Of a DNA stretch of 54,988 nucleotides, positions 18,948 to 34,923 are shown one piece after another. This DNA comes from a phage: assembly GCA_021081985.1 (NCBI GenBank), contig GCA_021081985.1_3639.2. The stretch is one strand, 5' to 3'. The first letter of the stretch is position 1. Each line of letters opens with the position of its first letter. A program made the translations under genes and the position numbers. Under the pieces are notes generated by a model. That model was not told the DNA's origin and searched no databases. It saw only the letters and a list, made by a program, of their open reading frames with translations.

Positions 18948-18974
18948 ACAAGTTAAGCGACAGAGATATTCTGT

Positions 18975-19960: not shown

Positions 19961-19961
19961 T

Positions 19962-20276: not shown

Positions 20277-21713
20277 ATGCAAAAAGACGAATATGAAATG
20301 ATTGCCAAGTTAGAGAAGGATGCTGTAAAAGTTATCCAATCGGCACGAATAGCTCTTTTAAAGTACAGACCATTTTACGGGACTTTGTTAAGTTCTCTAC
20401 CCTTAGTTGCTAACTGGAAATGGTTGCCAACAGCAGCGACTGATCACAAAAACCTCTACTTCAACCCTGAGTTTATTATGGGTATGCCTGAAGAAAGGAA
20501 GAAGAAGGTTTTTGAGCGTGTGGATAATCACCCCACAATGACACAACAAGAAAAAGATGACTATAAAGACTATGTGAACGTATTTTATCGTAAGAAAACA
20601 CCCAAAGAGGTTGTTGTTATTCTTATGCACGAGCTACGTCATATTACTAACGATCATTTATCCCGTGGAAAAGCATTTGATTCTAAAACCTACAACACAG
20701 CAGCAGATCATTATATTAACACGGATTTAGTGGTGTCTGATCTTGGGCCACGCTCCAGCCAGATGTGTTTCTTCCCAATGGGGAAACAGACAACCTTTGA
20801 CAAAGGTAAAGAGTTTGGGTTTATGGCTTATTGCTACTGTGATTTTAATTTCCACGGTAAGACAGCGGAGGAGATTTACAGTCTCATAAACAAAGGCCAA
20901 CCGTCTGTTGGTAAACCTATGGGCACACACATAGGTGATTATGATCAAGACAGCAATATCCTAGGATATGAAGATCCTCACCCAGTGCCAAGCCAAGCAG
21001 AAAAAGATGATAATATGTCGTGGTCATCTGGTCTTATCGAGGCAGCGATGGAAGCAGCGGGAGGAGAGGGGCCGAAAGAGGTGCGTGACGTTATTGCAAG
21101 AATGCGTAAACCACACATAAATTATCTTCAGATAATCAAACAGCGTATGCTTTCTCGGATCAAGTCTAACCTGACATACAGGAAACCATCTCGTAGGTCT
21201 GGATCTATGACACAGGCACTTCGGCAGTATGGAGCTATTGAAAAAAAACAGCATATTGTTTTACCAGGAAGGGAGTACGATAATACTATAGATATAGTTA
21301 TTGGCTTCGATGTGTCTGGATCAATTTCGAAGGCGAATTTAGACAAAATCTTCGGAGAAATTGTAGGATTATGCCAGCTTTACCGCGTTTTTCGCGTGAC
21401 ATTGTTCTGTTGGTCAACAAAAGTCGGAGAGGTTAAAGTTTATACACATGATAATATCAAGGAAATGCTTGATTATAAAGTAAATTCTACGGGTGGGACA
21501 CTTGCAGCATCGGCTTTTGAGTATATTGAAAATAACATTTTTGATGCAAAAGACGTTATTATTTTTACAGACGGGTATATAGAGGATTTAAGCCACAAGA
21601 AAAAAGATTGGGGACGCAAGTGGGATATTCTTTGGGTTATTTGTGGTCGCGGAAATAATAAATTTGTACCACCTTTCGGAAGGGCTGTAAATTTAGATGA
21701 ACACGCAAAATAA
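20277..21713 (+). CDS. VWA-domain protein with N-terminal putative HExxH metallopeptidase domain (DUF2201-like)
   Basis: 478 aa; HELRH zinc-binding-like motif in the N-terminal half; MIDAS motif D-x-S-G-S in VIGFDVSGSIS in the C-terminal half. Confidence 0.65.
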   Translation: MQKDEYEMIAKLEKDAVKVIQSARIALLKYRPFYGTLLSSLPLVANWKWLPTAATDHKNLYFNPEFIMGMPEERKKKVFERVDNHPTMTQQEKDDYKDYVNVFYRKKTPKEVVVILMHELRHITNDHLSRGKAFDSKTYNTAADHYINTDLVVSDLGPRSSQMCFFPMGKQTTFDKGKEFGFMAYCYCDFNFHGKTAEEIYSLINKGQPSVGKPMGTHIGDYDQDSNILGYEDPHPVPSQAEKDDNMSWSSGLIEAAMEAAGGEGPKEVRDVIARMRKPHINYLQIIKQRMLSRIKSNLTYRKPSRRSGSMTQALRQYGAIEKKQHIVLPGREYDNTIDIVIGFDVSGSISKANLDKIFGEIVGLCQLYRVFRVTLFCWSTKVGEVKVYTHDNIKEMLDYKVNSTGGTLAASAFEYIENNIFDAKDVIIFTDGYIEDLSHKKKDWGRKWDILWVICGRGNNKFVPPFGRAVNLDEHAK

Positions 21714-22131
21714 ATTAAAAGTTTTCGACATGTTAGTGGATATTCACTTTCTATCTTTAGGGTGTGCAATAGATATATCATGGAAGAGTTGGAACGGTGG
21801 CAAATTTATTTTTGGATCGCTTAGACAAGATACCACAAAATATTTTGTAAGTTGCACAAGGAAATCTCTTGAAATACAGAAATTTTCTGGGTCTGGTTGG
21901 AAAACATTAATTGACCCCAGCATGACACTTGACCCACAAAATATATCAGAGAGTGAAAAACTCTTGGTAAATATTCTCCCAGGACTCACAGATTTTGAGA
22001 GGGAACTCTACGAAGTGGCTGGGAATGTGGCTAAAATGTGGGCAGATGACCACACACAAGAAACGGATGCAAGGGAGTACGTGAGGAAGTTTCTCCATAG
22101 TCATCTCGATTGGGATACACCAGAAGAGTAA
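21697..22131 (+). CDS. Hypothetical protein
   Basis: 144-aa ORF overlapping the VWA gene end by 17 nt. Confidence 0.4.
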   Translation: MNTQNKLKVFDMLVDIHFLSLGCAIDISWKSWNGGKFIFGSLRQDTTKYFVSCTRKSLEIQKFSGSGWKTLIDPSMTLDPQNISESEKLLVNILPGLTDFERELYEVAGNVAKMWADDHTQETDAREYVRKFLHSHLDWDTPEE

Positions 22132-22239
22132 AATTTAACCACACAGGGAGGCTAACGCACGTAGTCTCCCATATGTCCCCATTTCAGGGACATGGGTATG
22201 TCCCCGTTTTGGGGACACAATACTAACTGATCAAATTAA

Positions 22240-22440
22240 ACTAACTTATAAGATCTATTAAATATAATACTACGTATTATAATACTATGATCTATTTAAT
22301 ATGATCTAATATAATATAAATTATATAATATAATATAATTTAATATAATACTACGTATTATATATAATATATATATATATATATATTATATAAAATTTAT
22401 TTAAAATACATTAAGTCTTGAAGAATGTCAAGACTTGATT
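22240..22440. repeat. A/T-rich low-complexity tract with TATAATA-type repeats and a (TA)n run
   Basis: Repeated TATAATACTACGTATTATA, AATATAATATAAT and ATATATATATATATAT in a non-coding interval. Confidence 0.6.
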
Positions 22441-22625
22441 TTAAATATTTTTGTTGATATGATTCGATTGAGTCGAATCGTATGGTTCGATGATTTCGAA
22501 TCATAGAGTTCATAGTGTTTTGCCTGAAAGCATGAGTCGATGAGACTCTTCAGGCAATACGTGAGTGTGTAAGATGCTCACTGCGCTGATAGCTTGTGAT
22601 CATCTAACCCTCATGAGCCATTCTG

Positions 22626-22678
22626 AGATAAACACACAGAGACAAACCCTACAGGTTTGTCTCTGTGTGTTTATCTCA
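22626..22678. repeat. Perfect 24-bp inverted repeat with 5-nt loop
   Basis: GAGATAAACACACAGAGACAAACC - CTACA - GGTTTGTCTCTGTGTGTTTATCTC; no flanking T-run. Confidence 0.7.
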
Positions 22679-22843
22679 ATCATGGATTCGGGTTGTCACA
22701 AGTCACTATGTGACTCTGTGTGGGGATCTTGAATGTGTACCGGAGCATGGCGCACAGGACTGGTTCATCTGTCCGTCTCAACTGGGGCGCGGTGGGTGTC
22801 AAGGTTTAGTTTTACGTTTTGTGTGGGTGTGGAGGAGAGTCTT

Positions 22844-23155
22844 ATGGCCTACGATGAAAATTCTATCCGTGTGCTGTCACCTGATGATATCAAACAGCGA
22901 TTTGACTGGGTACGCATCGGGGATTTGGTTCACGAATATAACTTACCTGTGGATTGGGTCAGACGTGGCTTTGAAGCGTGCTGGAGGTTAGGCATCGAGC
23001 CTGATTATTTTATCAACAAGTACATCCTCAAGCATGGTGTTGATCCTGTACCTGATTTCGAGGCTGTTTTTAAAGAGATTATTATGGAATCTCGATTCAG
23101 GGATCAGGTATGCACTCGGCAGTCTCAAAAACGCATCTGCGAATCAGATTTGTAA
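22844..23155 (+). CDS. Hypothetical protein (start trimmed to ATG after GGAGGAGAG)
   Basis: The ORF-track start at 22733 lies inside the structured intergenic region; the ATG at 22844 has a strong RBS. Confidence 0.4.
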   Translation: MAYDENSIRVLSPDDIKQRFDWVRIGDLVHEYNLPVDWVRRGFEACWRLGIEPDYFINKYILKHGVDPVPDFEAVFKEIIMESRFRDQVCTRQSQKRICESDL

Positions 23156-23241
23156 ATGTGGTCCACAGATAGGTAAAAACATCAACGCGCAAACGATCGC
23201 GCGTGGCATCTGTAGAGCAAATTTTCAATTTTAGGAGAAAA

Positions 23242-23604
23242 ATGATGAATCGTACCATTACAGAAAAAGATCGTGAAATTGCTAAACAAAAACGAGAGCA
23301 ACAAAAGCGAGAATGGACTGCCTTGGCAGAAGCGGGAAAAATACGCCAACATTTCGCTGACGCTAATCACTGGGCAAGGCTCCGTAGTCAATACGGGATT
23401 ACATCCCCGAATAAGCTAGCACCAGCCGAAAGTAAGTATGGTTTGAAAATCCTTCGAAAGACGGTTAAGCTAACCGGAGGGTTCGAGTGGTTCAATGAGT
23501 CTTTCGGTATGGACATCAAGCAGTTTGTCAGAATGAACCCTTCATGGCCTGCATACGCTATTCAAGGGATCATCCTTGAAGAGTGGGATGATTATCAGAA
23601 TTGA
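23242..23604 (+). CDS. Hypothetical protein
   Basis: RBS TAGGAGAAAA then ATG at 23242; charged N-terminal helix. Confidence 0.4.
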   Translation: MMNRTITEKDREIAKQKREQQKREWTALAEAGKIRQHFADANHWARLRSQYGITSPNKLAPAESKYGLKILRKTVKLTGGFEWFNESFGMDIKQFVRMNPSWPAYAIQGIILEEWDDYQN

Positions 23605-23697
23605 TTTTTGTTGTGTTTCTGATAGCCAACTGGTATGTTTATTACAGGGAGTGATAACCACCCCTGTGTTACTTGTTTTATACAGGAGAGTTGATAT

Positions 23698-24321
23698 ATG
23701 TCTTGGCCTTTTTTGATTTATCTTATTGATGTTCTTAGTACTGATGGGAAGTATGATGGCTGGGGATTCTTGTTGTTTCTGTGTGTTATTGTATACATGC
23801 TGATGCGTCTTCTTCCAAAGATCCTCGAAGAACCTAAGCTGGATATCTATCCAGGACAAAATCTTGTTTTAGCACAAGATTGGTCACGATTTAAAGCCGG
23901 AGATGTTCTTGTTGTGAAGGATACTGCTGGTGGTGATGTTCTTCTTCGCCACGGGGAGGAATCCCTTGGTTCTTGGGTGAGCAAGAGCATTTTACGAAAA
24001 GTGTGCAAACTTGATGAAAAACAAGGATATATCCCACAGCAAGATGCGATGGAAACACCGCGAAAGTTAACTGTGATTGCTATGGTTGTCTGTGTGATGG
24101 GTATTCTATATGCCAACTTCATGCCGCAGAAAGAGACTTCTTACAAGATGCTTGCTGCGTATGTGGGTCAAAACATTGTTGAATCTCCAAGGACTCAACA
24201 ACTTGCGGATAGCACAATCAAGTATCTAGATGCCCAAATCAAGAAGTACACTCAAGAATTAGGTGACTCTTCAGAAGTGGCGAGTAAGGATTCTAAGCCT
24301 GGTGAGAAGGTGAAAGAGTGA
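23698..24321 (+). CDS. Putative membrane protein
   Basis: 207 aa with two hydrophobic stretches (GFLLFLCVIVYMLMRLL and LTVIAMVVCVMGILYANF). Confidence 0.4.
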   Translation: MSWPFLIYLIDVLSTDGKYDGWGFLLFLCVIVYMLMRLLPKILEEPKLDIYPGQNLVLAQDWSRFKAGDVLVVKDTAGGDVLLRHGEESLGSWVSKSILRKVCKLDEKQGYIPQQDAMETPRKLTVIAMVVCVMGILYANFMPQKETSYKMLAAYVGQNIVESPRTQQLADSTIKYLDAQIKKYTQELGDSSEVASKDSKPGEKVKE

Positions 24322-24683
24322 TGGGAAAGCCATTTGAAACAAAACGCATAGCGTTGGACTTTGATGATACTTTCACGCTAGAGCCTGAGAGATGGTCACA
24401 ATTTGTTTCTCTATTTGCAGCAAAGGGTTCAGGTTGGTGTGTTAAATTTGTTACTTATCGCTTCGATTCAGATGATAACTCTGATATCCAGTTTTGGGCT
24501 GAAAAACTAGGTATCGAAATAATTTATTGCAATGGTATCCAGAAAGCACAAGTTTGTGCAGAACTTGGTTGGATCCCAGATGTGTGGATAGACGATTTTC
24601 CTGTTCTCATTCCTGTGAAACAACAACTACAGGGTATGCTTTTAGGAATAGAAAATAACGAAGAAAAACATAATGCTAAGTAG
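24318..24683 (+). CDS. Hypothetical protein, possibly HAD-like phosphatase
   Basis: 121 aa; IALDFDDTF resembles HAD motif I DxDxT. Weak. Confidence 0.3.
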   Translation: MMGKPFETKRIALDFDDTFTLEPERWSQFVSLFAAKGSGWCVKFVTYRFDSDDNSDIQFWAEKLGIEIIYCNGIQKAQVCAELGWIPDVWIDDFPVLIPVKQQLQGMLLGIENNEEKHNAK

Positions 24684-24920
24684 TTTAAGGGGGAGTGTTG
24701 AGAAGCATTGCGTATTACAAATTCAAATGTTGGGAGAAACTCTATGATTTGAGCTACCTTATTTTTGGGAATCTCCCTGTCACTGAAGACATTAAACACA
24801 AAATGTATCTTGCATACATGAAATACCGTCTCCACGAAAGAAAGAGTGGTTGATGAGAATGTTATGATGCCCTGTAGATACTCTCTACAGGGCTTGAATG
24901 CTTAATCACAGGACTTACCA

Positions 24921-25745
24921 ATGACAAGTATTTTACACACGACAGGTATTTTACCACACTATCAGAAGGACTATTCTTTCCCTGATTTATCTGGGGATAT
25001 GTTGCAAATATACGACAAAGTGCAAGGCGAAGTGTCGGAGCTACAGTTTAGTTCAGACCCTGATGATGAGCAAGAGTTTGATAAACAGATTTGTCGTGTA
25101 GAAAACGAGCTTATAGAGCTACAATCATTAGCCAAATCAACAGATATCGAAGACTTAAGGCGATACGTTGAGAATCTTGAAAATTTAGTGTTCGGGCTTT
25201 CGCAAGCTATTATAAACATTGGTGAAATTGCTAAAATTGCCTCTGACAAGTTGCCAGACAACGCAGAAGATATTGAAGAAGCGTTGCAGAATATCTGCTA
25301 TGAAGGAAGTTCTGCTCTCGGTTGTGAATGTAATCTAGGAAATGCTCTTGAAGAACGTGGGTGGAGCCTGTTCCAAAAAACTTTTGTTTATCGTGTTATT
25401 GGTGGTGAGTTCCCACGACTCTTACAACTTAATACCCTTTTTGGAAACAGTCAGAGTGATAATATTGCATTAGGTATTGATGGCTGGTTCTGCTTAAGAG
25501 GTAAAGAATTAACATTTTGTCGTGGCGATGATGTGTTAATTCTCAATGCTTCTAAACCTGGTGTTGGAATAACAGTGAGACTTAATGGTAAGTCCGCTAA
25601 TTTCCACACCACAGAATTGGCAGATATTTTTATGGACATATTAGATCCTACAGAAGACGAAATTCTTATGTATGAAATGACCAGTGGAAAAAGATATGAT
25701 ATTTTGTCGTGGAGAAATATTTTCGGTAAGAAGAAAAGTTTATAG
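24921..25745 (+). CDS. Hypothetical protein
   Basis: 274-aa acidic ORF followed by a hairpin at 25776-25798. Confidence 0.45.
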   Translation: MTSILHTTGILPHYQKDYSFPDLSGDMLQIYDKVQGEVSELQFSSDPDDEQEFDKQICRVENELIELQSLAKSTDIEDLRRYVENLENLVFGLSQAIINIGEIAKIASDKLPDNAEDIEEALQNICYEGSSALGCECNLGNALEERGWSLFQKTFVYRVIGGEFPRLLQLNTLFGNSQSDNIALGIDGWFCLRGKELTFCRGDDVLILNASKPGVGITVRLNGKSANFHTTELADIFMDILDPTEDEILMYEMTSGKRYDILSWRNIFGKKKSL

Positions 25746-26010
25746 TATGATATTTTATCGCTGATATTTGTTTTCCCTGTGATATTTTGTCACAGGGAGA
25801 AGTTTCAACAACAGATATTTTCTTGATACTTTAAAATTCTACCAGAATTTTAAATTCTGTAAATTTAGAAAACTATTACTTATAAGCGTTTCGACACAAT
25901 TTTGTTATGAAAGCCTTGTTTTTATATAAAAACCTGTTTTAGCATGAGTGGTAGGATCACACTCCATACTACCTTTATTCCTACAGATGAGCACCTCCAT
26001 GTCCGAAAAC

Positions 26011-26200
26011 TCGGTTCTCGATCGAAAATTCATTTTCTAAATCGTATTTGCTCCTTACGGAGAAAATTTTTTAGGGCTACAAATTTCAGTTCTCGATCGG
26101 TTTTTCGATTTCAAAATCGTATTTGTTTTTTCTTGCGAAATTTTTCGCACGCTCAGTTCTCGATCGAGTTTTCAAAATCGAAATCGTATTTGCTCTATAG
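26011..26200. repeat. Three imperfect direct repeats (GTTCTCGATCG ... AAATCGTATTTG), 67-75 bp period, with flanking A/T palindromes
   Basis: GTTCTCGATCG at 26014, 26089 and 26156; AAATCGTATTTG at 26039, 26114 and 26181. Confidence 0.6.
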
Positions 26201-26601
26201 CGCGAAAAAATTTTTATGGGTATCATAATTCTATCACACACTTAAACGCAAAGCAACATAAAAATTTTTGTTGAATGATAATCATTCTCATTTGCAGAAT
26301 GACAGGTAGGATTGGTGTCTTATCCTCCCCCGTTGACCATCGTCGCCGTAGTTTGAAGTTTATAGCCGTTCTCGGCTTATCTCTTTGTTAGATAGAGATT
26401 AACATAGTTGCCAAAGGAATCAAGCGTTAATTGTAATCTTTACGTTTCTTTACAAATTTATTTTGGACGAGTTACCGGCGATCGACCTTACAACCAGCGC
26501 CATGGTATGTTAGCCCCGCCTTTACGCCGTGGGGATGGCGTTTCCTCTTTTGTATGTTAGTCATAATAAGCCCAATCCCTGGGCTTGTCAAACATTTTTA
26601 T

Positions 26602-26865
26602 CTATTTATTTTCTTGCCAGGTTAGGACACCTAACCAGAAATGGCAATCACCTTTCGCCCATTGTGGTATATTGCTTTCTTTCCCACCTTCTCGCGCCCA
26701 GGAATAACCGCCCGTGTAACTTTGCAATTGATAACTATCCTCGACCTTATAATCTGACAGGTTGAGAACTGTTTCTACCTTTAAGCCCGTTGCGCTCGCT
26801 ACCTGGTGGATAGTTCCCCCTTGCCAGCCTAACGCGTACATAAGGTGCATTGTGGTAGTGGTCAT
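26602..26865 (-). CDS. Hypothetical protein, divergent from the early cluster
   Basis: 87-aa ORF; GAGGAA upstream of ATG on the minus strand. Confidence 0.35.
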   Translation of the reverse strand: MTTTTMHLMYALGWQGGTIHQVASATGLKVETVLNLSDYKVEDSYQLQSYTGGYSWAREGGKESNIPQWAKGDCHFWLGVLTWQENK

Positions 26866-26950
26866 TTTTCCTATTCCTCTGTTAGTTGGTTAGTTGTTAA
26901 AATTGTATCTATAATCAGCCAGGTTTGCAAGGCAAATAAAAGAGAAAAAT

Positions 26951-26996
26951 TTTTTAAAAATAGTATTGACAGCGGGGGGTAGTATAGATCTACTAT
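26951..26996 (+). promoter_or_regulatory. Putative sigma70-type early promoter with A/T-rich upstream element
   Basis: AAAAATAGTATTGACA with TTGACA at 26966-26971; the -10 is ambiguous (TATAGAT or TACTAT). The same AAAAATAGTATTGACA element recurs at 32021-32037. Confidence 0.4.
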
Positions 26997-27050
26997 GTGC
27001 ACATCAAGGCGATACACCGCCACCAACCAACCTAAAAGGGGTAAATTAAT

Positions 27051-27674
27051 ATGAAAACCATCGTTAACGCTGAGAATGTATCTTTCGATAAGTTGAACGA
27101 CGAACAAAAAGAAAAAGCCATTGATCTTATTCGTGAGCGTGAAAGAGAAAGCGCCGATAATTTCTTTGCGGATAGTGTCATTGAAGACTATAAGAATGAC
27201 ATTTTACCAGAGTACGGGATCGATGACGCGGTTATCTATTGGTCAGGATTCTGGTCGCAAGGCGACGGCGCATCAATCAGCACTGACAGCGTGGATATTG
27301 AAAAATTTTTAAGAAAAGTTAAATCTTTAACAAAATTTAGAGGTATCCGCAAACTATTTGATCTCGGTGAATATAGCCAGTTATATGCAAGCATTGAGCG
27401 GGATAACTACAGCCGTTACCATCATGAAAATACTGTATCAGGTTACGTTGAGACTATGTATTGCGGTGATTTAACGGCAAAACAGGAAGATCTGATCAAT
27501 CAGCTTGAAAACTTGTTAACTGAAACGATCCGCGATCTGTCTTGTAAACTTTACAGAGATTTAGAATCAGCCTACGATGACCAGTTTACAGATGAAGCCA
27601 TCACCGAGTCAATTGAAGCCAATGATTATCGTTTTGATATTGATGAAGATGGAAAAGTTTACGCTATCGCTTAA
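27051..27674 (+). CDS. Acidic hypothetical protein (first gene of the early cluster)
   Basis: 207 aa, Asp/Glu-rich; RBS AAAAGGGGTAAATTAAT before ATG. Confidence 0.5.
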   Translation: MKTIVNAENVSFDKLNDEQKEKAIDLIRERERESADNFFADSVIEDYKNDILPEYGIDDAVIYWSGFWSQGDGASISTDSVDIEKFLRKVKSLTKFRGIRKLFDLGEYSQLYASIERDNYSRYHHENTVSGYVETMYCGDLTAKQEDLINQLENLLTETIRDLSCKLYRDLESAYDDQFTDEAITESIEANDYRFDIDEDGKVYAIA

Positions 27675-27680
27675 AAGTAC

Positions 27681-27710
27681 TTGCATTCAGTTTTAAAATA
27701 GTATTATACT
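27681..27710 (+). promoter_or_regulatory. Putative promoter TTGCAT-17-TTATAC
   Basis: Precedes the 5' stem-loop at 27721-27740 and the gene at 27762. Confidence 0.35.
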
Positions 27711-27761
27711 ACTATCACAAAGCGGGGAATCTCTCCCCGCGACATTCAGGAGATCATCAAA

Positions 27762-27974
27762 ATGGCTAATATCCGCACCTTGTTAAAAAATGCAAAGCAA
27801 GTTTTATTTTCCGATCACGATTATTTAAATAAAGACATTACAGGCGTAAAGAATATCAAAGACGTAAAAAATGTCATGGGTATCTATTGCAATATGAAGC
27901 GAGTAGGCACATTTGGTAATAAAGTATTATATCAGGCAGGTGACTACAATTTTACTTTGACAATTATTTCATAA
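27762..27974 (+). CDS. Hypothetical small protein
   Basis: 70 aa; RBS CAGGAGATCATCAAA before ATG. Confidence 0.45.
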   Translation: MANIRTLLKNAKQVLFSDHDYLNKDITGVKNIKDVKNVMGIYCNMKRVGTFGNKVLYQAGDYNFTLTIIS

Positions 27975-27980
27975 AACCAC

Positions 27981-28008
27981 TTGCAAAGTTATATAGTCCT
28001 GTTATACT
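27981..28008 (+). promoter_or_regulatory. Putative promoter TTGCAA-16-TATACT
   Basis: Hexamers at 27981-27986 and 28003-28008. Confidence 0.45.
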
Positions 28009-28041
28009 ACCAACATTGACAAACGAGAGGTAAATAAAAAA

Positions 28042-28398
28042 ATGGCAATCCAGGCAATCCTGTTAGAACTTACAGACTTCCGTAATACTGTAAAAAATTT
28101 AACCAAAAAACAGGTTGATAATATTATCAACGGATACCGTAGCAAGATTAAAGATCTTCCGCTTAAACGCGATCAACATGCGGCTAATATGATGCTTGAC
28201 GCTATGATCAAAAAGATGATTCAGTGCGATCTTACTCTGGCTTATGAATACGCTGGCGATCTCTTTGTAACGTATAATAAGCCAGTGCCAGGCATGTGCA
28301 CCACGGAAGAATTGCACGCCCTGAATCTAAAACAAGATGCATGGGATAATATGCGCCGCGTTATGGTGTGGGCAGAAAGCGGTAAAATTTATCAATAA
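28042..28398 (+). CDS. Hypothetical protein
   Basis: 118 aa; RBS GAGAGGTAAATAAAAAA before ATG. Confidence 0.45.
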   Translation: MAIQAILLELTDFRNTVKNLTKKQVDNIINGYRSKIKDLPLKRDQHAANMMLDAMIKKMIQCDLTLAYEYAGDLFVTYNKPVPGMCTTEELHALNLKQDAWDNMRRVMVWAESGKIYQ

Positions 28399-28404
28399 AG
28401 ATAG

Positions 28405-28442
28405 TTGTCTTTTAGTTATGCCGTGGTAGAATACACGGCATA
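28405..28442 (+). promoter_or_regulatory. Promoter TTGTCT-16-TAGAAT with a 9-bp inverted repeat (TATGCCGTG / CACGGCATA) bracketing the -10
   Basis: Arms at 28417-28425 and 28434-28442; near-identical copy at 32649-32686. Confidence 0.5.
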
Positions 28443-28474
28443 GATAAGAGAAACTACTTATCAGAGTTTAAAAG

Positions 28475-28693
28475 ATGAAAAATATTACTGGTAAAACCGA
28501 GCTATTAAAGGCGCTTTCTGTCGGTGAGTCAGCTTTATGGGTATGTGAAAAAGATCGCCTACCGTCGCGTGAGATGGCCTTGTTTAAGGCTTTATCTCTG
28601 AAGCTGAAAATTAAATTATCCCAAAAATTAGCGGTTGTTGCCGCACCTGGGGAAACTGCTTTCAGTGTTGTAATGGTTAAAAGGTTGGAGTAG
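28475..28693 (+). CDS. Hypothetical small protein
   Basis: 72-aa ORF. Confidence 0.4.
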   Translation: MKNITGKTELLKALSVGESALWVCEKDRLPSREMALFKALSLKLKIKLSQKLAVVAAPGETAFSVVMVKRLE

Positions 28694-28713
28694 AAAAAAA
28701 ATTAAAAATTATA

Positions 28714-28742
28714 TTGACAAGCAAAACAGCAAAAATTAAACT
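28714..28742 (+). promoter_or_regulatory. Putative promoter TTGACA-17-TAAACT
   Basis: A-rich upstream tract; precedes the gene at 28781. Confidence 0.35.
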
Positions 28743-28780
28743 TACACACAGTTAAACAAATAATATTAACGAGGTAAATC

Positions 28781-29152
28781 ATGAAACAGTTAACCGCTTC
28801 CCAAAAAGCAATGATCCGCAAGTATGTTTTAAACTCTCTTTCTTTCGATATTGAATCGGGTAGCGAGCAAGATCAGATCAAAGAATTAAAAAACCGATTT
28901 GAATCTGAATACTGGTACGATAGCAACAAGAAACGCTATCAAAATGATAAAGTACAAGGCCTCAAAAATTGGTTGCAAGGTTTGCCGAGTGGTGTTAATA
29001 TCGATTTCACTTATTACGATATTGAGCAACGCCTTAAAGATCTTGGAATCATTACCGAGACGACCAGAGAAAGCACTATTGAAAAATATGTATCTGAGTG
29101 GTGGGATCTGATAGCGCCGTTTTATGCTGGGCTAATCGTCAACTTAAAATAA
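28781..29152 (+). CDS. Hypothetical protein
   Basis: 123 aa; RBS ACGAGGTAAATC before ATG. Confidence 0.45.
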   Translation: MKQLTASQKAMIRKYVLNSLSFDIESGSEQDQIKELKNRFESEYWYDSNKKRYQNDKVQGLKNWLQGLPSGVNIDFTYYDIEQRLKDLGIITETTRESTIEKYVSEWWDLIAPFYAGLIVNLK

Positions 29153-29230
29153 TTATTGTAAACTGTCTGAAACTGGTTTAAATTAAAGGGAGTGAGTTTA
29201 ATCACTCCCAACATGAAAGAGGTTAATCAA

Positions 29231-29542
29231 ATGAATACTTATTTTTCTACTCGTTCACTTGCACGCATTGCAGCGAAAGAAACAGGCGGTAAAGTTTTAG
29301 ATAATGGAAAAGATGCGCCGATCGGTAAACGTTGGCAAGTTATCCCTGGCTATGTTATTGAAGCCGTCCAGGATACAGCGAAACAACGCGCTGAGATGGA
29401 AAATAAACCAGTAGTCACCTTGTCCATTGGTAAGCGTAGCAATGTAGCGAATCAAGCCCGTAAGGCGCTTTATTACGCCATCAATTACGCAAAAAATAAT
29501 AAAACTGTTCCGGTTTATCATAAGCGTTCATTTAAAAAATAA
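29231..29542 (+). CDS. Hypothetical protein (start trimmed to MNTYFST)
   Basis: RBS AAAGAGGTTAATCAA before ATG at 29231; basic C-terminus. Confidence 0.4.
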   Translation: MNTYFSTRSLARIAAKETGGKVLDNGKDAPIGKRWQVIPGYVIEAVQDTAKQRAEMENKPVVTLSIGKRSNVANQARKALYYAINYAKNNKTVPVYHKRSFKK

Positions 29543-29559
29543 TTTTTAATTAGATAAAA

Positions 29560-29583
29560 AAGCGCCCATCTCTTAGGGCGCTT
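29560..29583 (-). terminator. Stem-loop AAGCGCCC/GGGCGCTT with the T-run on the minus strand
   Basis: On the plus strand an A-run precedes the hairpin, so it is oriented to terminate minus-strand transcription inside a plus-strand gene block. Confidence 0.35.
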
Positions 29584-29620
29584 AACCAAAACACCAAAAC
29601 ACTTAAAGAGGTAAATTATT

Positions 29621-29971
29621 ATGAATAATATTGTAGAAGTTTTCAAAAAAGCCGTAGAAAATAAAAACGCTGAATTGTCTTTAGTATCTCTAGATTTCAC
29701 TGATGTTTACGGTAACACTTATTTTGTTTATGAGCTTAGTTTTACTTGTCCTGAGTTAAAAACATGGGAGACGTTGCATAAATCTCGCGATCTGCAATAT
29801 GGATATGGTGATCACGTTTTAACTGTTGCAATGAAAGACCTTTCAACTATCACCGGGGTAAAATCTGAGGCCGCATATATTACCCGTTGGGCGCATGACA
29901 ACGGTTTAAAAATTAGTGTCAACAAGCGCACCAATTGCCGGAAAAAAGATTTAAAACAGTTTATCGCTTGA
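29621..29971 (+). CDS. Hypothetical protein
   Basis: 116 aa; RBS AAAGAGGTAAATTATT before ATG. Confidence 0.45.
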
Positions 29972-29996
29972 TCCTGTTAATCATCTTGGTGGTTGT

Positions 29997-30347
29997 ATGA
30001 TTCAGTTTTATATAATCATCGCGGCGCTTGCAATTTACTTAGGATTGCACAAAAAAGTATTCAGGGTGATTATCTGGTTTTATTACGAGTACAGGATCAA
30101 AATGGTTTTCCATTATATTGAATACTCTTTCCACGGTGAGAGATACCACACAAGAAGATCCGGCCCATTAAATGATCTTGAGGGCAACGGTTTAATCTGT
30201 GAGATTAAAAAGCGTGGCGGTAAAATTCTTTACCACAAAGAGGGTACTTTTGATTATATTGATGAGGTGATTAATTTTAGGCAACAAGCCGTAAAAGATC
30301 ACGCCAGCAAAATAATCAACGGCAGCTATAAACGCAAAGCGGGGTAA
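29997..30347 (+). CDS. Hypothetical protein with N-terminal transmembrane segment
   Basis: 116 aa; N-terminus MIQFYIIIAALAIYLGL is hydrophobic. Confidence 0.4.
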   Translation: MIQFYIIIAALAIYLGLHKKVFRVIIWFYYEYRIKMVFHYIEYSFHGERYHTRRSGPLNDLEGNGLICEIKKRGGKILYHKEGTFDYIDEVINFRQQAVKDHASKIINGSYKRKAG

Positions 30348-30348
30348 T

Positions 30349-30531
30349 ATGCGGAATTTTGAAAAAATTGTTAAAGCTAATCGCCTGGAATACGGGGAAA
30401 CAGACGAAAAACGGGAACGGGTAGGCAAACGCCACAAACCTAAAAAGGTTCCTAAGTTGTGGTGTCCTGATAAATACGATCACAAATTAAAACAGCGTAT
30501 CGCTGAAAAACAGCGACTTAATGCAAGATAA
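30349..30531 (+). CDS. Hypothetical small basic protein
   Basis: 60 aa, Lys/Arg-rich; followed by a terminator. Confidence 0.4.
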   Translation: MRNFEKIVKANRLEYGETDEKRERVGKRHKPKKVPKLWCPDKYDHKLKQRIAEKQRLNAR

Positions 30532-30536
30532 CAGAC

Positions 30537-30561
30537 AAGGCCGGATAGTTCCGGCCTTTTT
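30537..30561 (+). terminator. Rho-independent terminator
   Basis: AAGGCCGGA-TAGT-TCCGGCCTT followed by TTTTT. Confidence 0.6.
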
Positions 30562-30749
30562 AATGCCTGGTGGCGTTCAGAACGATTAAAACTCTTAAAG
30601 ATGGTCCAATGTACCACAAAATAAAATAGCTCGTTAGAGAGTGTTTTAGAGGCCTTAAAATCGATCCGAAAATATCTATAAAAATGCTTGCAATGCTTTC
30701 CCGCTATCGTTATAGTGTTCCCAACAAGCAAGCAAACGAGGTAACGGCA

Positions 30750-30887
30750 ATGATTGAGATTCTTAAAAATCCTATTTTGTGTGGTATGGTTGTTTCTGTG
30801 TCACTTCCGATCGTGCTGTTAGTCGTTGGCGAGATAGATGATCTTATTTTCAATAAAAGACTTGCCAACAAGTCAAAAACAAATTAA
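30750..30887 (+). CDS. Small membrane protein (start trimmed to MIEILKNPIL)
   Basis: RBS ACGAGGTAACGGCA before ATG at 30750; hydrophobic core CGMVVSVSLPIVLLVVG. Confidence 0.35.
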   Translation: MIEILKNPILCGMVVSVSLPIVLLVVGEIDDLIFNKRLANKSKTN

Positions 30888-30924
30888 CATAGTATCAACA
30901 TACTAACTGACGAGGTGATTTAAT

Positions 30925-31143
30925 ATGTTTGGTTTTATTGTTCTATCTTGTTCTCTTTCTGTCACTGCTGCAAAGGTAGAATGTAACTACACTGTAAAAG
31001 AGACTTTTAATGATGAAAATTCTTGCAATGTATACGAAAATAATTATAAACTAGGAGACGGGGAGCAGTTCGGGATCTGTGATGAATTAAAGGACGGTAT
31101 CAAGAAAGGCGATAAGCGCCCGATCCTGGTCCTGAAAAAATAA
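30925..31143 (+). CDS. Small secreted protein (signal peptide-like N-terminus)
   Basis: 72 aa; N-terminus MFGFIVLSCSLSVTAAKV; RBS GACGAGGTGATTTAAT. Confidence 0.4.
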   Translation: MFGFIVLSCSLSVTAAKVECNYTVKETFNDENSCNVYENNYKLGDGEQFGICDELKDGIKKGDKRPILVLKK

Positions 31144-31175
31144 TTTTTCTAATCATGTTGATCAATTTTTAAGAG

Positions 31176-31472
31176 GTGAATAAAATGTTTGAAGTTTTCG
31201 CGGGTATGTGCTTTTATACAGCTTTGGCAGTTCGCCAGTGTGATGATTATATCGTTGAATCATACGATGATCAGTTGACTTGCGAAATAGTCGCTAATGA
31301 CTACGGCAAAAAAGATCGCTGGATTAATCCGGCTTGCATACCATCCCCAGAGGTTGAAGCCATGCCGGAAGGGGAAGAGGTATCAGATCCAGTTGTAGCA
31401 GTATCCTCCTTTTTCGTTGACAACCTGGACGCCCAAGAATTGATCAACATGTATGTAAAAAATCAAAAATAA
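31176..31472 (+). CDS. Hypothetical protein
   Basis: 98 aa; RBS TAAGAGGTGAATAAA before ATG. Confidence 0.45.
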   Translation: MNKMFEVFAGMCFYTALAVRQCDDYIVESYDDQLTCEIVANDYGKKDRWINPACIPSPEVEAMPEGEEVSDPVVAVSSFFVDNLDAQELINMYVKNQK

Positions 31473-31475
31473 CGC

Positions 31476-31510
31476 TTGACGTTGATTTGTGCCACCTTAT
31501 AATAGGTGGC
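31476..31510 (+). promoter_or_regulatory. Promoter TTGACG-16-TATAAT with the -10 inside the inverted repeat GCCACCT/AGGTGGC
   Basis: TTGACG at 31476-31481, TATAAT at 31498-31503; palindrome arms at 31491-31497 and 31504-31510. Confidence 0.5.
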
Positions 31511-31562
31511 ATAGGTAAGCGAAAGCGGATCTAAGTCTTAAACAAGTTAAGAGAGGTAAATC

Positions 31563-31697
31563 ATGGAACAAGCTAATAAATTTTTCTTTCTGGCTGGGAT
31601 CGTGGATAATGTGAAATATGATTTCAAGCGTGAAAATGATAAGACGTTACTCACTTTCTGCGATATGCTTGATCATGAGAATGCCGACAAGTTATGA
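31563..31697 (+). CDS. Hypothetical small protein (44 aa, not in the ORF track)
   Basis: RBS AAGAGAGGTAAATC before ATG; translated MEQANKFFFLAGIVDNVKYDFKRENDKTLLTFCDMLDHENADKL. Confidence 0.3.
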   Translation: MEQANKFFFLAGIVDNVKYDFKRENDKTLLTFCDMLDHENADKL

Positions 31698-32031
31698 ATC
31701 GAGATCCGCACGATAACCAATATCGACAATTCAAGCCGTTTAATTTATAAATCTCATTCGATAGCTTACAGCTTGGAAACATCAACAAGCTGCATACAAC
31801 AAGGTGAGAGCTTGCCCATTCTAAATAGTGCCGATGTATTTGGCGCGGTTGTTGCAATTGTAAATGATGTTTTTTCTCGTTGATTGGTGTTAATATTATG
31901 TTAGAGAATATCGTGTTTTGGTGTGGTGTCGTTATCGCTGTTATGGTTGGCATCCTGGCGACGATGGCGAACATTGTGATCTCAAACAACCTGGCAGGGT
32001 AAAAATTTTTTAAAAATAGTATTGACATACT

Positions 32032-32059
32032 GGCGGCATATGGTATCATTTACCACATG
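32032..32059 (+). promoter_or_regulatory. Promoter TTGACA-16-TATCAT with extended -10 TG and upstream AAAAATAGTA element
   Basis: TTGACA at 32032-32037; TGGTATCAT at 32051-32059. Confidence 0.45.
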
Positions 32060-32100
32060 AAGGGGCGAGATTGACTTGCCTCACTAACGAAAGGTAAATA

Positions 32101-32370
32101 ATGATGAACATTTCTAAAACTACTTTTAACTTTGCTAAAAAGCGTGGAATTGAGCTTGAGCTAGTCGAAGCAGATGATCGCTTGCTCCTGGCTTTTTATG
32201 AAGCTAAAAACGAATGTGAGTGGATGTTCTCTTATAATGTTAATCATGATTGCCTAACCTGGCGCGGAAATATCTATCTTTCAAACGAAGTGAAAGAGGA
32301 ATTACCCGCCACGATCACGACTGAGAAAAAACTACGTGAGGTTATTGACTTCATCTCTAAAAGTATCTAA
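32101..32370 (+). CDS. Hypothetical protein
   Basis: 89 aa; RBS ACGAAAGGTAAATA before ATG. Confidence 0.45.
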   Translation: MMNISKTTFNFAKKRGIELELVEADDRLLLAFYEAKNECEWMFSYNVNHDCLTWRGNIYLSNEVKEELPATITTEKKLREVIDFISKSI

Positions 32371-32417
32371 GATTACAGGGAAAGGGGCAAAAGCCCCCTA
32401 CCGCAGAAGGTATAAAA

Positions 32418-32642
32418 ATGGATAAATTAACAAAGATTGAACATGAAGTTATGGATCTTGCACGGGCTAATAAGCCATTTGACAAGATTTACTCTAAGGA
32501 GAATAAAGAGATCTTGAAAGATCTAACGCAAGGCCAAAAAGACGGCTTGCGCCGCTTATATCGTGAGGCGTATGACTATTTTCGCTGGTGGGAAATAGAA
32601 GAGGCTAACGCGAAAATAGAAGGCTTAGAAAATTTAGTATAA
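32418..32642 (+). CDS. Hypothetical small protein
   Basis: 74 aa; RBS CAGAAGGTATAAAA before ATG. Confidence 0.4.
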   Translation: MDKLTKIEHEVMDLARANKPFDKIYSKENKEILKDLTQGQKDGLRRLYREAYDYFRWWEIEEANAKIEGLENLV

Positions 32643-32648
32643 AAGTAG

Positions 32649-32686
32649 TTGACTTTTAGTTATGCCGTGATAGAATGCACGGCATA
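32649..32686 (+). promoter_or_regulatory. Promoter TTGACT-16-TAGAAT with the same 9-bp inverted repeat (TATGCCGTG / CACGGCATA) as at 28405-28442
   Basis: The two copies share about 40 nt including both palindrome arms. Confidence 0.5.
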
Positions 32687-32737
32687 GATAAGAGAGACGG
32701 CATAAGCCATTAATTAAACTTAAAGAGGTGAATTATC

Positions 32738-33139
32738 ATGAATACTTATGGTACTGTTTTTAATTTCGACAACTTCAAAGCTATCTGTGACGATCAGATC
32801 GGTAAGTGCCGTAAAGAAAAAGGATTCTATAAATCTTATAAATTGATTGCGGTTGTTGATGAAGAGATCACCGAAGTGGCGACGCTCAACCTGTACCACA
32901 CCAACGCTACTAATTACGCTTGCTTATGGATGCACTGGACCAATATTAAAGGTTGGGATCATGGCTATGTTGGCGGGAAAGCAAGCGGATACGGTTACAA
33001 CAGGGAAGAGGCCGCGATCCATGTTGCAGCTAATAAACTCGGTATTACCGGCAACTGGTTTAACGGTGAACAATTGTTAGATGCAATGGCACGTCATTTT
33101 GATATGAAAGGCGCGAAGGTTATCTGCTGCAACGCGTGA
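32738..33139 (+). CDS. Hypothetical protein
   Basis: 133 aa; RBS AAAGAGGTGAATTATC before ATG. Confidence 0.45.
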   Translation: MNTYGTVFNFDNFKAICDDQIGKCRKEKGFYKSYKLIAVVDEEITEVATLNLYHTNATNYACLWMHWTNIKGWDHGYVGGKASGYGYNREEAAIHVAANKLGITGNWFNGEQLLDAMARHFDMKGAKVICCNA

Positions 33140-33186
33140 TCACTCAATAGCGGGGAATATTCCCCGCTTATAGATAGGGCATAATC

Positions 33187-33570
33187 ATGATTTACGATCT
33201 TAAATATTACGACGAATTGAGCATTGCAGCACAATTAACCGCCCGTGTCAATATTATAGCAGACCTGGAGAATCACCACAGAAAGCGCATAGCTCAGACT
33301 ATCGCCAGTTTTAAAAATGATCCCCATAAAGTGATTAATGACACGAAGCACATTCAACGCCTGATAAACGGCGCAAAGGCGCTTTATAGTGTACGCCATT
33401 ACGTGGATGATTACCTTATAAAGTTTATTCGTGATAATCGTTTGATCTTTACCCCTGGGGGCAGCTATATAACCTATAGCGACGGCTTTATGATGATTAT
33501 TGGAGGTAAGGAATACACCCCCCACGGCCTCACAACAAAAAGCATTGAGGGAGCTTTACATAGCCATTAA
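33187..33570 (+). CDS. Hypothetical protein
   Basis: 127-aa ORF preceded by the stem-loop at 33149-33168. Confidence 0.4.
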   Translation: MIYDLKYYDELSIAAQLTARVNIIADLENHHRKRIAQTIASFKNDPHKVINDTKHIQRLINGAKALYSVRHYVDDYLIKFIRDNRLIFTPGGSYITYSDGFMMIIGGKEYTPHGLTTKSIEGALHSH

Positions 33571-33642
33571 TGAACGCGGTCCGTCATATCATGATTGGTT
33601 ATATAGAATACACCACAAGATAAAAATTTTTATGATTCCCGC

Positions 33643-33671
33643 TTGACACCCTCATAAAAACGCCTTATTAT
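33643..33671 (+). promoter_or_regulatory. Promoter TTGACA-17-TATTAT
   Basis: Followed by the 5' stem-loop GGCGGGGAGCGGTTCCCCGCC (33683-33703) and the gene at 33725. Confidence 0.45.
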
Positions 33672-33724
33672 CTATCTCATAAGGCGGGGAGCGGTTCCCC
33701 GCCACACTTAAGAGGTAAATAATC

Positions 33725-34090
33725 ATGCGTAACCTGGTTCATGTTTCCAACGTTGAAAAATTCCAATCTTTACAGGCTATCGTAAACGATACAGCGCTTT
33801 TTATCGTTAAAGGCTTGATCGCAAGAATGCAACAGAAAAAACCTGAAATCTGGGCTAATTATTGCCTTGATAATGATGATCAGGCCGCCGCTTTCATGGT
33901 TGGCGAACTGCTGGGAAGTGTAGGGAACATGTTACCGGAAAACATCGCAGAAGAGATCGCCTACCGTTACAATATGGCGATAACTTATCAGGAAGTCGCA
34001 CAATTTAACCTGATGGATGACGACGAACAACAGGACAGGAAATTTTCTGGGAGTATGCCGACCGCCAAGCCGTTTTTGATGAGCGGTTAG
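33725..34090 (+). CDS. Hypothetical protein
   Basis: 121 aa; RBS TAAGAGGTAAATAATC before ATG. Confidence 0.45.
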   Translation: MRNLVHVSNVEKFQSLQAIVNDTALFIVKGLIARMQQKKPEIWANYCLDNDDQAAAFMVGELLGSVGNMLPENIAEEIAYRYNMAITYQEVAQFNLMDDDEQQDRKFSGSMPTAKPFLMSG

Positions 34091-34118
34091 AGATGTACTA
34101 TAATGAATGGTAATGAAC

Positions 34119-34147
34119 AGGCCGCATATTAGCGGCCTTTAATTTTT
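34119..34147 (+). terminator. Putative rho-independent terminator
   Basis: AGGCCGC-ATATTA-GCGGCCT followed by TTTAATTTTT. Confidence 0.5.
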
Positions 34148-34150
34148 CTA

Positions 34151-34178
34151 TTGACAATATTACACTAACCTTTAAAAT
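34151..34178 (+). promoter_or_regulatory. Putative promoter TTGACA-16-TAAAAT
   Basis: Precedes the small gene at 34210. Confidence 0.4.
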
Positions 34179-34209
34179 GTTCTCTGTTAAGTATCTTTAA
34201 AGGTGTAAC

Positions 34210-34389
34210 ATGTTTCAATCAATCATTGATGTTCTATCAGTCGCTAACAACGTGATGAATGTAATTACAATGATTAAACTTGTTGCGTGGTTTGTTTCTG
34301 GGGATTATCGCTATATCAAATGGCGCAAGCCAACCATAAAAGACGTAGCGAAGATCTCATTTGAAGCAATGACAGAATATTATCTATAA
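34210..34389 (+). CDS. Hypothetical small protein (59 aa, not in the ORF track)
   Basis: RBS AAAGGTGTAAC before ATG; translated MFQSIIDVLSVANNVMNVITMIKLVAWFVSGDYRYIKWRK... Confidence 0.3.
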   Translation: MFQSIIDVLSVANNVMNVITMIKLVAWFVSGDYRYIKWRKPTIKDVAKISFEAMTEYYL

Positions 34390-34401
34390 CGATTATTTTT
34401 G

Positions 34402-34430
34402 TTGACATCCTGGGATTACTCTTTTACTAT
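34402..34430 (+). promoter_or_regulatory. Putative promoter TTGACA-17-TACTAT
   Basis: Precedes the gene at 34485. Confidence 0.4.
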
Positions 34431-34484
34431 TAACGTGACTGGAAGGCCGTAACTGGTACGACCTGATTTGAAAGGTGAATTAAT

Positions 34485-34685
34485 ATGAAACGTTTTACTT
34501 ATGGTGTTGTCGGTGGTTCTGTTTCTAATCGGTTTTACAATACCGAGCGTGGTGCTAAAAATGCGGCTACCCGTGAACATGGCAATAGTGTGAATTTACA
34601 AGTTGGCTATATTAGCAAAATTAGCGGCATGTTTATTCCGGTTGCTCAACGCGGCATGTATTGCATAAACTGGATGCCAATGTAA
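34485..34685 (+). CDS. Hypothetical small protein
   Basis: 66 aa; RBS AAAGGTGAATTAAT before ATG. Confidence 0.45.
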   Translation: MKRFTYGVVGGSVSNRFYNTERGAKNAATREHGNSVNLQVGYISKISGMFIPVAQRGMYCINWMPM

Positions 34686-34700
34686 AAAGGAGTAATAAAA

Positions 34701-34892: not shown

Positions 34893-34923
34893 TCTCTTAC
34901 AACCGCACAAAGTAAAATTGTAC

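Follow-up and report, generated by a model that had tools for sequence, protein, structure and literature searches.

The question raised by this locus is whether a short stem-loop that recurs in the gaps between small phage genes is one functional element, and if so which. It lies in a stretch of phage DNA of 54,988 nucleotides (GenBank assembly GCA_021081985.1, contig GCA_021081985.1_3639.2; hereafter the window). A sequence-only reading had listed hairpins with GCGGGGA/TCCCCGC-type stems at 27721-27740, 33149-33168 and 33683-33703, as well as supposedly related tandem hairpins at 22147-22215, and had attributed to them a common function as 5' stabilisers, RNase III processing sites or binding sites for one RNA-binding protein. 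All of these hairpins are present where they had been placed. Our analysis identifies the GCGGGGA/TCCCCGC hairpins as local copies of a conserved RNA stem-loop family of rV5-type (Vequintavirinae) and phi92-type (Stephanstirmvirinae) myoviruses. The family hairpin is confined to the early small-gene cluster, is not followed by a U-tract, has a fixed position relative to promoter and start codon, and keeps its pairing by compensatory change. The idea that a shared stem reflects a shared function is supported by a family that spans at least five genera, by its fixed position and by covariation that preserves the pairing.

The window derives from an Avunavirus-like myovirus. The 12-kb stretch around the hairpins is about 94% identical to the Escherichia phages Av-05, classified as Avunavirus within the Vequintavirinae, and vB_EcoM_TH18 (TH18), and shares patchy identity of 78-83% with phi92-like phages. 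About 30 small open reading frames (ORFs) are encoded on the + strand from about 22.8 to 35 kb and constitute the early-gene cluster of an rV5-type myovirus; nearly all gaps between them contain a sigma70-like promoter, a stem-loop and a strong Shine-Dalgarno sequence. A motif search for the stem, which had been proposed as a check, excluded a chance frequency. CGGGGA-N2-10-TCCCCG occurs three times in the 54,988 bases, compared to a mean of 0.02 in dinucleotide-preserving shuffles (0 of 100 reached three), and the looser GGGGA-N2-12-TCCCC was found three times where 0.20 occurrences were expected. All three CGGGGA-type sites are located inside intergenic gaps of the + strand cluster. Stems of the GCGGGGA/TCCCCGC kind fold with -12 to -18 kcal/mol.

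Two of the three copies are situated immediately downstream of a promoter, as had been noted before. The hairpin at 33683-33703 (+ strand; GGCGGGGA-gcggt-TCCCCGCC, or GGCGGGGA(G)-cgg-(T)TCCCCGCC) starts 11 nt past the -10 box of an early sigma70 promoter at 33643-33671 (+ strand; TTGACA-17-TATTAT, 11 of 12 consensus positions), and its 3' end is followed after 21 nt by the ATG at 33725 of the gene 33725-34090. It scored 48.9 bits with a covariance model of the family, of which this sequence is one of the seeds. Orthologous sites carry compensatory changes, the stem being GACGGGGAG/TTCCCCGTC in Av-05, GGCGGGAAA/TTTCCCGCC in the phi92-like phage Paula, and GCCGGGGAA/TTCCCCGGC in PVP-SE1 and GAP31. 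The hairpin at 27722-27740 (+ strand; GCGGGGA-atctc-TCCCCGC; covariance-model E=0.001) shows the same spacing, with 11 nt to the -10 box and 21 nt to the ATG at 27762. Its probable early promoter at 27681-27710 (+ strand; TTGCAT-18-TATACT), which precedes the gene 27762-27974, was read by eye. The -35 box of this weaker promoter matches at three of six positions, hence it fell under the threshold of the scanner and was not listed. TH18 and Av-05 have the identical promoter sequence, and TTGACA-16-TAAAAT takes its place in the orthologous cassette of Paula. In TH18 and Av-05 the stem reads GACGGGGA/TCCCCGTC, a compensatory exchange of G-C for A-T, and the loops differ (actgc, tcgc).

The third copy, at 33149-33168 (+ strand; AGCGGGGA-atat-TCCCCGCT), also matched the covariance model. 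It occupies a 47-nt gap without a promoter, with 9 nt to the preceding stop codon at 33139 and 18 nt to the following ATG at 33187. Both TH18 and Av-05 keep it, the latter with a single change in the loop. A diverged member at 32062-32082 (+ strand; GGGGCGAG-attga-CTTGCCTC; E=0.044) contains two G.U pairs and starts 12 nt past the -10 box of an early promoter at 32022-32049 (+ strand; TTGACA-16-TATCAT, 11/12 match with an extended TG) that precedes the gene 32101-32370. The corresponding stems are GGGGAGAG/CTCTCCCC in Av-05 and GGGGCAAG/CTTGCCTC in TH18; across these relatives A-T is exchanged for C-G at one pair, and a second pair passes from G-C through G.U to A-U. The sense fold of this hairpin has -12.0 kcal/mol, compared to -5.5 kcal/mol for the antisense fold. 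A possible distant member with an E-value of only 1.2 is located at 29188-29209 (+ strand; GGGAGTGA-gtttaa-TCACTCCC), 21 nt ahead of the ATG at 29231 and without a clear promoter. TH18 and Av-05 have GGGGTGA/TCACCCC at this site, and the window has one additional base pair that is kept on both arms.

The covariance model was built from 11 copies of equal geometry and replaced a MAFFT alignment of 45 hairpins that was out of structural register. Within the 55-kb window it recovered only 33675-33713, 27713-27751, 33140-33178 and, weakly, 32053-32092, with no match in the flanking - strand gene blocks. Over all fetched loci 61 matches were obtained, counting both strands of palindromic stems.

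The same cassette is common to rV5, PVP-SE1, GAP31, Av-05, TH18 and Paula. It consists, in this order, of an AT-rich upstream element, the -35 box, the -10 box, 9-12 nt ending in ..CAYAA/G, the hairpin with a G-rich 5' arm, 7-10 bp and a loop of 3-7 nt, an A-rich unstructured spacer, a Shine-Dalgarno sequence and an ATG. In rV5 GGCGGGAA/TTCCCGCC is found 10 nt after TTGACA-16-TAAACT and after TTGACA-16-TATACT, and the Seunaviruses PVP-SE1 and GAP31 have GCCGGGGA/TCCCCGGC and GGCCGGGAG/TTCCCGGTC at the same cassette position. Paula, a Justusliebigvirus and thus a member of a different subfamily, contains 14 hairpin gaps in 12 kb with the same layout: TTGACA, 16-17 nt, the -10 box, about 10 nt ending in CATAG or CATAA, GGCGGGAAA-tgg-TTTCCCGCC or a near variant, about 10 nt, a Shine-Dalgarno sequence and ATG. 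Each lineage has its preferred stem variant, namely GCCGGGGA in Seunavirus, GGCGGGAAA-tgg in Paula and CGGGGA in the Avunavirus-like phage analyzed here. The flanks of the stem are conserved as well, with A-Y-A before and A-C after it. Loops are variable (atctc, atat and (g)cgg(t) in the window; tgg, tag, atag, cgc and others elsewhere).

In 24 of 26 cassettes with strictly scored promoters the pairing begins 9-12 nt past the end of the -10 box, and at least 33 of 38 cassettes have the hairpin 3' of their own promoter. From the last paired base to the ATG there are 17-25 nt across all copies, with AAGAGG or AAAGGT in between; hence the spacing to the ribosome-binding site varies no more than that to the promoter. 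A AAGAGGTAAAT..ATG motif is among the repeated sequences of the window. Promoter-less copies directly after a stop codon, like that at 33149, were also found elsewhere (position 9401 in loci L125 and L124, position 9315 in the Paula locus L003). The tight spacing to the ribosome-binding site, the promoter-less copies and an arrangement resembling regulatory cassettes of T4-like phages, considered below, extend the sequence-only reading.

The stem by itself is generic, and it is the layout that distinguishes the family. Scans of IMG/VR for the bare stems GCGGGGA-N3-7-TCCCCGC and GGCGGGAA-N2-6-TTCCCGCC each returned at least 120 stretches. The matches listed were nearly all single copies on unrelated contigs, with a T-run at 72 of 246 sites, and at none of these 246 sites was the layout of promoter, hairpin and Shine-Dalgarno/ATG found. 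Thus, these scans serve only as a negative control. A search of Rfam 15 over 18000-37500 yielded nothing relevant; the sole matches were spurious microRNA precursors at a 25-bp palindrome.

Base pairing of the family stem is under selection. Among 35 distinct sense sequences, standard pairs fill 98% of the cells, compared to 80% +/- 1.3% after shuffling of partners (reached in 0 of 1,000 shuffles). In the full alignment both sides vary in 8 of 9 pairs, and the covariation score is 0.468 versus 0.167, a value attained in 0 of 500 shuffles. Pairing in this alignment falls to 41-69% when the partners are displaced by 1-3 columns. Orthologous sites show changes from G-C to A-T, from G-C to C-G and from A-T to C-G, G.U intermediates and one insertion of a whole pair. 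Such compensatory changes in both arms are expected of pairing and not of protein contacts, which bears on a possible role as DNA operator for a dimeric repressor of the early promoters, at about +3 to +22. The constant position relative to the -10 box and the near-palindromic, conserved half-sites GGCGGG..CCCGCC would suit an operator. However, the spacing of the half-sites varies with the loops (3-7 nt), many copies are not palindromic as DNA, with 16 G.T positions of which two are at 32062, and the copies at 33149, at 9401 in L125 and at 9315 in L003 have no promoter to be repressed. Based on spacing, G.T positions and promoter-less copies an operator was rejected, and we regard it as quite improbable.

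The G.U pairs also bear on the strand. The sense strand contains 16 G.U pairs against 4 A.C pairs, and the sense fold is the stabler one in 35 of 45 cases, counts that refer to a family chosen on the sense strand. This excess of G.U pairs and of stabler sense folds indicates that the element acts as sense RNA rather than as DNA or antisense RNA. The public annotation of Paula (L003, LR865361) differs in this point, since it lists at least 8 family hairpins as terminators on the strand opposite the genes, among them 2831-2855, 3283-3302, 6154-6177, 6411-6438, 8724-8747 and 9310-9335. Covariation and the G.U asymmetry argue that these are sense-strand leader hairpins. If they instead terminated antisense transcription entering from the flanking - strand gene blocks, the Paula annotation would be explained, as would the - strand interval 27740-27722, which the scanner flagged as weakly terminator-like, and the conserved CAYAA before the stem, which reads TTRTG after the stem on the - strand. 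On that strand, however, the G.U pairs of the sense RNA become C.A mismatches, the fold is the weaker one in the same 35 of 45 cases, and the tails hold only 3-4 T per 10 nt. Moreover, the fixed distance to the Shine-Dalgarno sequence and ATG of the sense strand is left unexplained. Antisense termination therefore seems very improbable to us.

On the sense strand the earlier statement that none of the hairpins has a T-run proved correct, and it holds for the family. In the 10 nt after the hairpin A accounts for 51% and T for 15%, and T-runs do not exceed 2 in any of the 35 distinct copies. An intrinsic terminator of the sense strand was consequently rejected; the hairpin is present and the U-tract is not. 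A related explanation is an attenuator or terminator that acts on transcription arriving from the upstream cassette and stops or reduces it, leaving each small gene mainly under the control of its own promoter. Such a role has been proposed for the promoter-early stem-loops (PeSLs), mobile regulatory cassettes of the T4-like phages RB49, phi1, PST and nt-1 (Arbiol et al. 2010, PMC2839356; Comeau et al. 2014, PMC4122927). Stems in RB49 are of the same G-tract/C-tract type (GGGGATC..GATCCCC, compared to GCGGGGA/TCCCCGC here), and one RB49 PeSL stem-loop cloned alone reportedly reduced a downstream reporter as much as the strong rrnB T1 terminator (PMC2839356). Copies right after stop codons in promoter-less gaps (33149; 9401 in L125) fit an attenuator, and the annotators of Paula chose the label terminator, although on the opposite strand. 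Against it stand the lack of a U-tract in all 35 copies with their A-rich downstream sequence, and the location of at least 33 of 38 hairpins downstream of their own promoter, where an efficient terminator would abort its own transcript at about +25. The RB49 geometry also differs, the stem being placed between -35 and -10 or around the -10 box and followed by a T/A-rich -10. On balance an attenuator appears unlikely.

We favour, with about an even chance of being right, a role of the hairpin in stabilising or insulating early mRNAs, at their 5' ends or between cistrons. RNA polymerase of E. coli usually starts 7-8 nt after the -10 box. Since the hairpin begins 9-12 nt after this box, an early mRNA made by the host polymerase would have 2-5 nt ahead of the stem, and the conserved C-A-Y-A-A/G ahead of the stem may offer a pyrimidine-purine start. 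In this position the hairpin would be expected to hinder decay that depends on the 5' end, both at the removal of pyrophosphate by RppH and at 5'-end sensing by RNase E, and it could also block pairing of upstream sequence with the ribosome-binding site. When the 5' end is base-paired, RNase E cuts RNA more than tenfold more slowly than when a 5' monophosphate is accessible, and the ompA and papA mRNAs are stabilised by 5' stem-loops (reviewed in PMC3997798, citing Emory 1992; Bouvet and Belasco 1992; Bricker and Belasco 1999). Where transcription reads through, and where a gap has no promoter as at 33149, the hairpin might cap the 3' end of the upstream cistron or, after processing, the 5' end of the downstream cistron. 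Because promoter, hairpin and Shine-Dalgarno sequence recur ahead of many unrelated small genes, the cassettes may in addition serve as short homologies for gene swapping, as proposed for PeSLs.

Among the functions proposed at the outset, a 5' stabiliser fits best, given the predicted overhang of 2-5 nt, the G.U pairs favouring the sense strand and the missing U-tract; RNase III processing is very unlikely. RNase III sites of phage T7 are found between cistrons and in leaders of early mRNAs, a location that the hairpins share. RNase III substrates have a helix of about 20 bp or longer that is paired for the most part, corresponding to about two helical turns, whereas the stems of the family measure just 7-10 bp. 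Processing by RNase III was rejected for this reason, and its probability is close to nil.

Several points weigh against a protective leader hairpin. Our literature searches found no transcript map for Vequintavirinae or phi92-like phages, so the overhang of 2-5 nt is a prediction, and an overhang of 5 nt would sit at the limit for protection. The pairing counts do not represent independent events, as the alignment was fitted to the structure and includes many paralogous copies. Of about a dozen early promoters in the window, only 3-4 are followed by the hairpin, which is hence dispensable for each individual gene. The reporter effect described for the RB49 stem-loop also points away from stabilisation. 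Finally, stem sequence and orientation are more conserved than stability alone needs: the G-rich arm is invariably the 5' one, and at two core pairs G-C occupies 67 of 69 cells. This extra conservation hints at a sequence-specific partner or at homogenisation between copies.

Such a partner would be a specific phage or host protein that reads the hairpin as a tag of early mRNAs and thereby protects them, for instance by exempting them from a phage-stimulated attack of RNase E on host mRNA, controls their translation or times the shut-off from early to middle expression. An Srd-like protein has been reported for rV5 (rV5 genome paper). The almost invariant G-G/C-C core, the conserved orientation, the flanks A-Y-A and A-C and the lineage-preferred stem variants, which might have coevolved with their reader, are all compatible with such a site, and in this respect the earlier proposal of one RNA-binding protein retains some appeal. 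It does not agree with the loops, which vary in sequence and length (3-7 nt) even between orthologues, nor with the stem positions, several of which flip from G-C to C-G or turn into A-U. Many early promoters of the phage lack the hairpin, common descent plus exchange between copies could also explain the conservation, and no candidate binder was found among the neighbouring early proteins tested, which gave no Pfam match. A binding site is therefore a doubtful alternative to the protective leader hairpin.

The Pfam test covered ten proteins encoded within 18975-34090, eight of them inside the early cluster. Only one of the ten, encoded at 20277-21713 outside the cluster, exceeded a family threshold; the eight cluster proteins had no match, and no RNA-binding or nuclease candidate was among the ten. 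In the annotation of TH18 and Av-05 every counterpart of the small cluster ORFs is hypothetical.

The PeSL cassettes are the closest described relatives of the leader-hairpin cassette. Both are intergenic, precede small genes of unknown function in a variable early region, combine an AT-rich upstream element and a strong sigma70-type promoter with a G-tract/C-tract stem, a Shine-Dalgarno sequence and a start codon, and are repeated along the cluster. In the window an 81-nt direct repeat at 28374 and 32618 is 80% identical, and an upstream AT-rich element with its -35 segment is 100% identical at 26945-26971 and at 32001, in the cassette of the promoter 32022-32049. A further likeness is that junctions of differences between close relatives fall inside the cassettes. 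Comparing TH18 (L001) 16088-16410 with the window at 34410-34474, the sequences diverge right after the -35 box (TTGACATCC) and rejoin at the Shine-Dalgarno sequence (GGTRAATTAATATG); this junction evidence comprises one or two events and is thus thin. Two promoter-hairpin-ORF cassettes of TH18, at 16088-16410 and 16838-17276 of L001, are absent from the window and from Av-05, the latter cassette being located between the short direct repeats TTTACAATC and TTTACAGCC. Gene order is shuffled between the phage of the window and Paula.

The difference lies in the geometry. RB49 cassettes, as read from the sequence, have the form TTGACA-GGGGATCnnnnGATCCCC-TATAAT or enclose the -10 box in their loop; a Shine-Dalgarno sequence and ATG come next. 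Their stem, between -35 and -10 or around -10, is located upstream of the transcription start, is therefore outside their own transcript and could act only on read-through. In contrast, the stems in the window and in rV5, phi92-like and PVP-SE1-like phages begin 9-12 nt past the -10 box, at the predicted 5' end of their own mRNA. The phages also belong to different families, PeSLs having been described only for T4-like phages. The genome papers of rV5 and of the Certrevirus CB7 describe sigma70-like early promoters and do not mention the hairpin. New is hence a stem in the mRNA leader, downstream of the promoter, within an otherwise PeSL-like early-gene cassette.

The window contains three inverted repeats of another kind, which enclose a -10 box. 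Two are TATGCCGTG-gtagaata-CACGGCATA at 28417-28442 and 32661-32686, both inside the 81-nt repeat, and the third is TGCCACCT-tataat-AGGTGGCA at 31490-31511. Their geometry is that of RB49 PeSLs and of promoter-coupled terminators. In the latter the RNA 3' end is located about 10 bp upstream of the next start and the T-tract contributes to the promoter (Fletcher et al., bioRxiv 2026, doi 10.64898/2026.08.19.745784). The family cassettes resemble promoter-coupled terminators in combining hairpin and promoter in one short gap between co-directional genes, but the order is reversed, the promoter preceding the hairpin, and a T-tract is missing.

With the stabilisers of ompA and papA the family shares a short stable hairpin upstream of the ribosome-binding site, here predicted to stand within a few nucleotides of the 5' end, the absence of a U-tract, and the importance of pairing over loop sequence. 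Those elements are single, gene-specific and experimentally shown, whereas the family hairpin is a repeated, family-wide module with a predicted 5'-terminal position and also occurs between cistrons without a promoter. A further 5' stem-loop stabiliser is the leader hairpin of T7 phi10 that is used in pET vectors. The boxB of lambda nut sites, which binds the antitermination protein N, is likewise a short G+C stem-loop in an early transcript soon after an early promoter. It has a conserved purine-rich pentaloop and is accompanied by boxA, whereas loops of the family are not conserved and a dozen or more copies per genome are situated directly at the predicted 5' end. A boxB-like antitermination site was rejected because of the variable loops.

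The tandem hairpins regarded as related in the sequence-only reading do not belong to the family. They follow the gene 21697-22131 on the + strand and comprise GGGAGGCTA/TAGTCTCCC at 22146-22170, (T)ATGTCCC/GGGACAT(G) at 22172-22194 and TGTCCCCG/TGGGGACA at 22199-22217. The covariance model of the family did not match 22146-22217, and for this reason and because of the different context their kinship was rejected. The first of them straddles a breakpoint of synteny with Av-05 and TH18 at about 22166. The second and third are identical in Av-05, and TH18 keeps only that at 22172-22194 because it lacks 22194-22299.

These hairpins stand at the edge of a non-coding region of about 700 nt (712 nt, 22132-22843) with AT-rich repeats and a long palindrome. 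Its part 22240-22400 is extremely AT-rich, with degenerate TATAATA and ACTACGTATTATAATAC repeats, and could be a promoter array or a replication origin. At 22624-22678, upstream of the first early gene, there is a perfect palindrome with a 25-bp stem, TGAGATAAACACACAGAGACAAACC-ctaca-GGTTTG..., the sole helix in the vicinity whose length would suffice for RNase III. TH18 and Av-05 have an imperfect version; the phage of the window differs by four substitutions that complete the pairing and are all located in the 5' arm, a pattern that looks like templated, hairpin-copied mutation. A 1.3-kb stretch without a gene call on the + strand (25746-27050) includes three tandem repeats of about 63 nt at 26010-26214 (..TTCTCGATCG..AAATCGTATTTG.., spaced by 67-75 nt), which are also present in TH18 and Av-05. 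They look like iterons and may mark a replication origin. AATGATAATNATTNTCA is found in three near-perfect copies (0-1 mismatch) at 26274-26290, 35159-35175 and 35219-35235, in the non-coding regions flanking the early cluster. We take it to resemble the E. coli Fur box GATAATGATAATCATTATC.

Beyond the breakpoint at about 22166 the segment 18975-22166 differs from the close relatives. There, Av-05 and TH18 encode nicotinamide phosphoribosyltransferase and PRPP synthetase on the - strand; the window has + strand genes instead, including a DUF2201 metallopeptidase-like/VWA protein of 478 aa (20277-21713). At the other end of the cluster a 118-bp segment (35429-35546) is 97% identical to Av-05 in opposite orientation and consists of two inverted pieces relative to TH18. 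It includes hairpins at 35448-35483 and may be a small invertible or palindromic segment.

If the hairpin is a protective element of early leaders, the rV5-, phi92- and PVP-SE1-like coliphages, a group that is large and popular in therapy, would construct their early genes from a standard three-part module of promoter, 5' hairpin and ribosome-binding site. This would provide a simple rule for the annotation of early transcription units in phages whose hairpins are now either unannotated or listed as terminators on the wrong strand. The module would also represent a compact natural part to stabilise or insulate mRNAs in E. coli. The conservation of stem orientation and core beyond the needs of pairing raises a question that can be tested. 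Furthermore, the cassettes would be a second, independent example of the PeSL idea, in which regulatory cassettes also act as linkers for the recombinational shuffling of small genes, in another phage family and with a different geometry.

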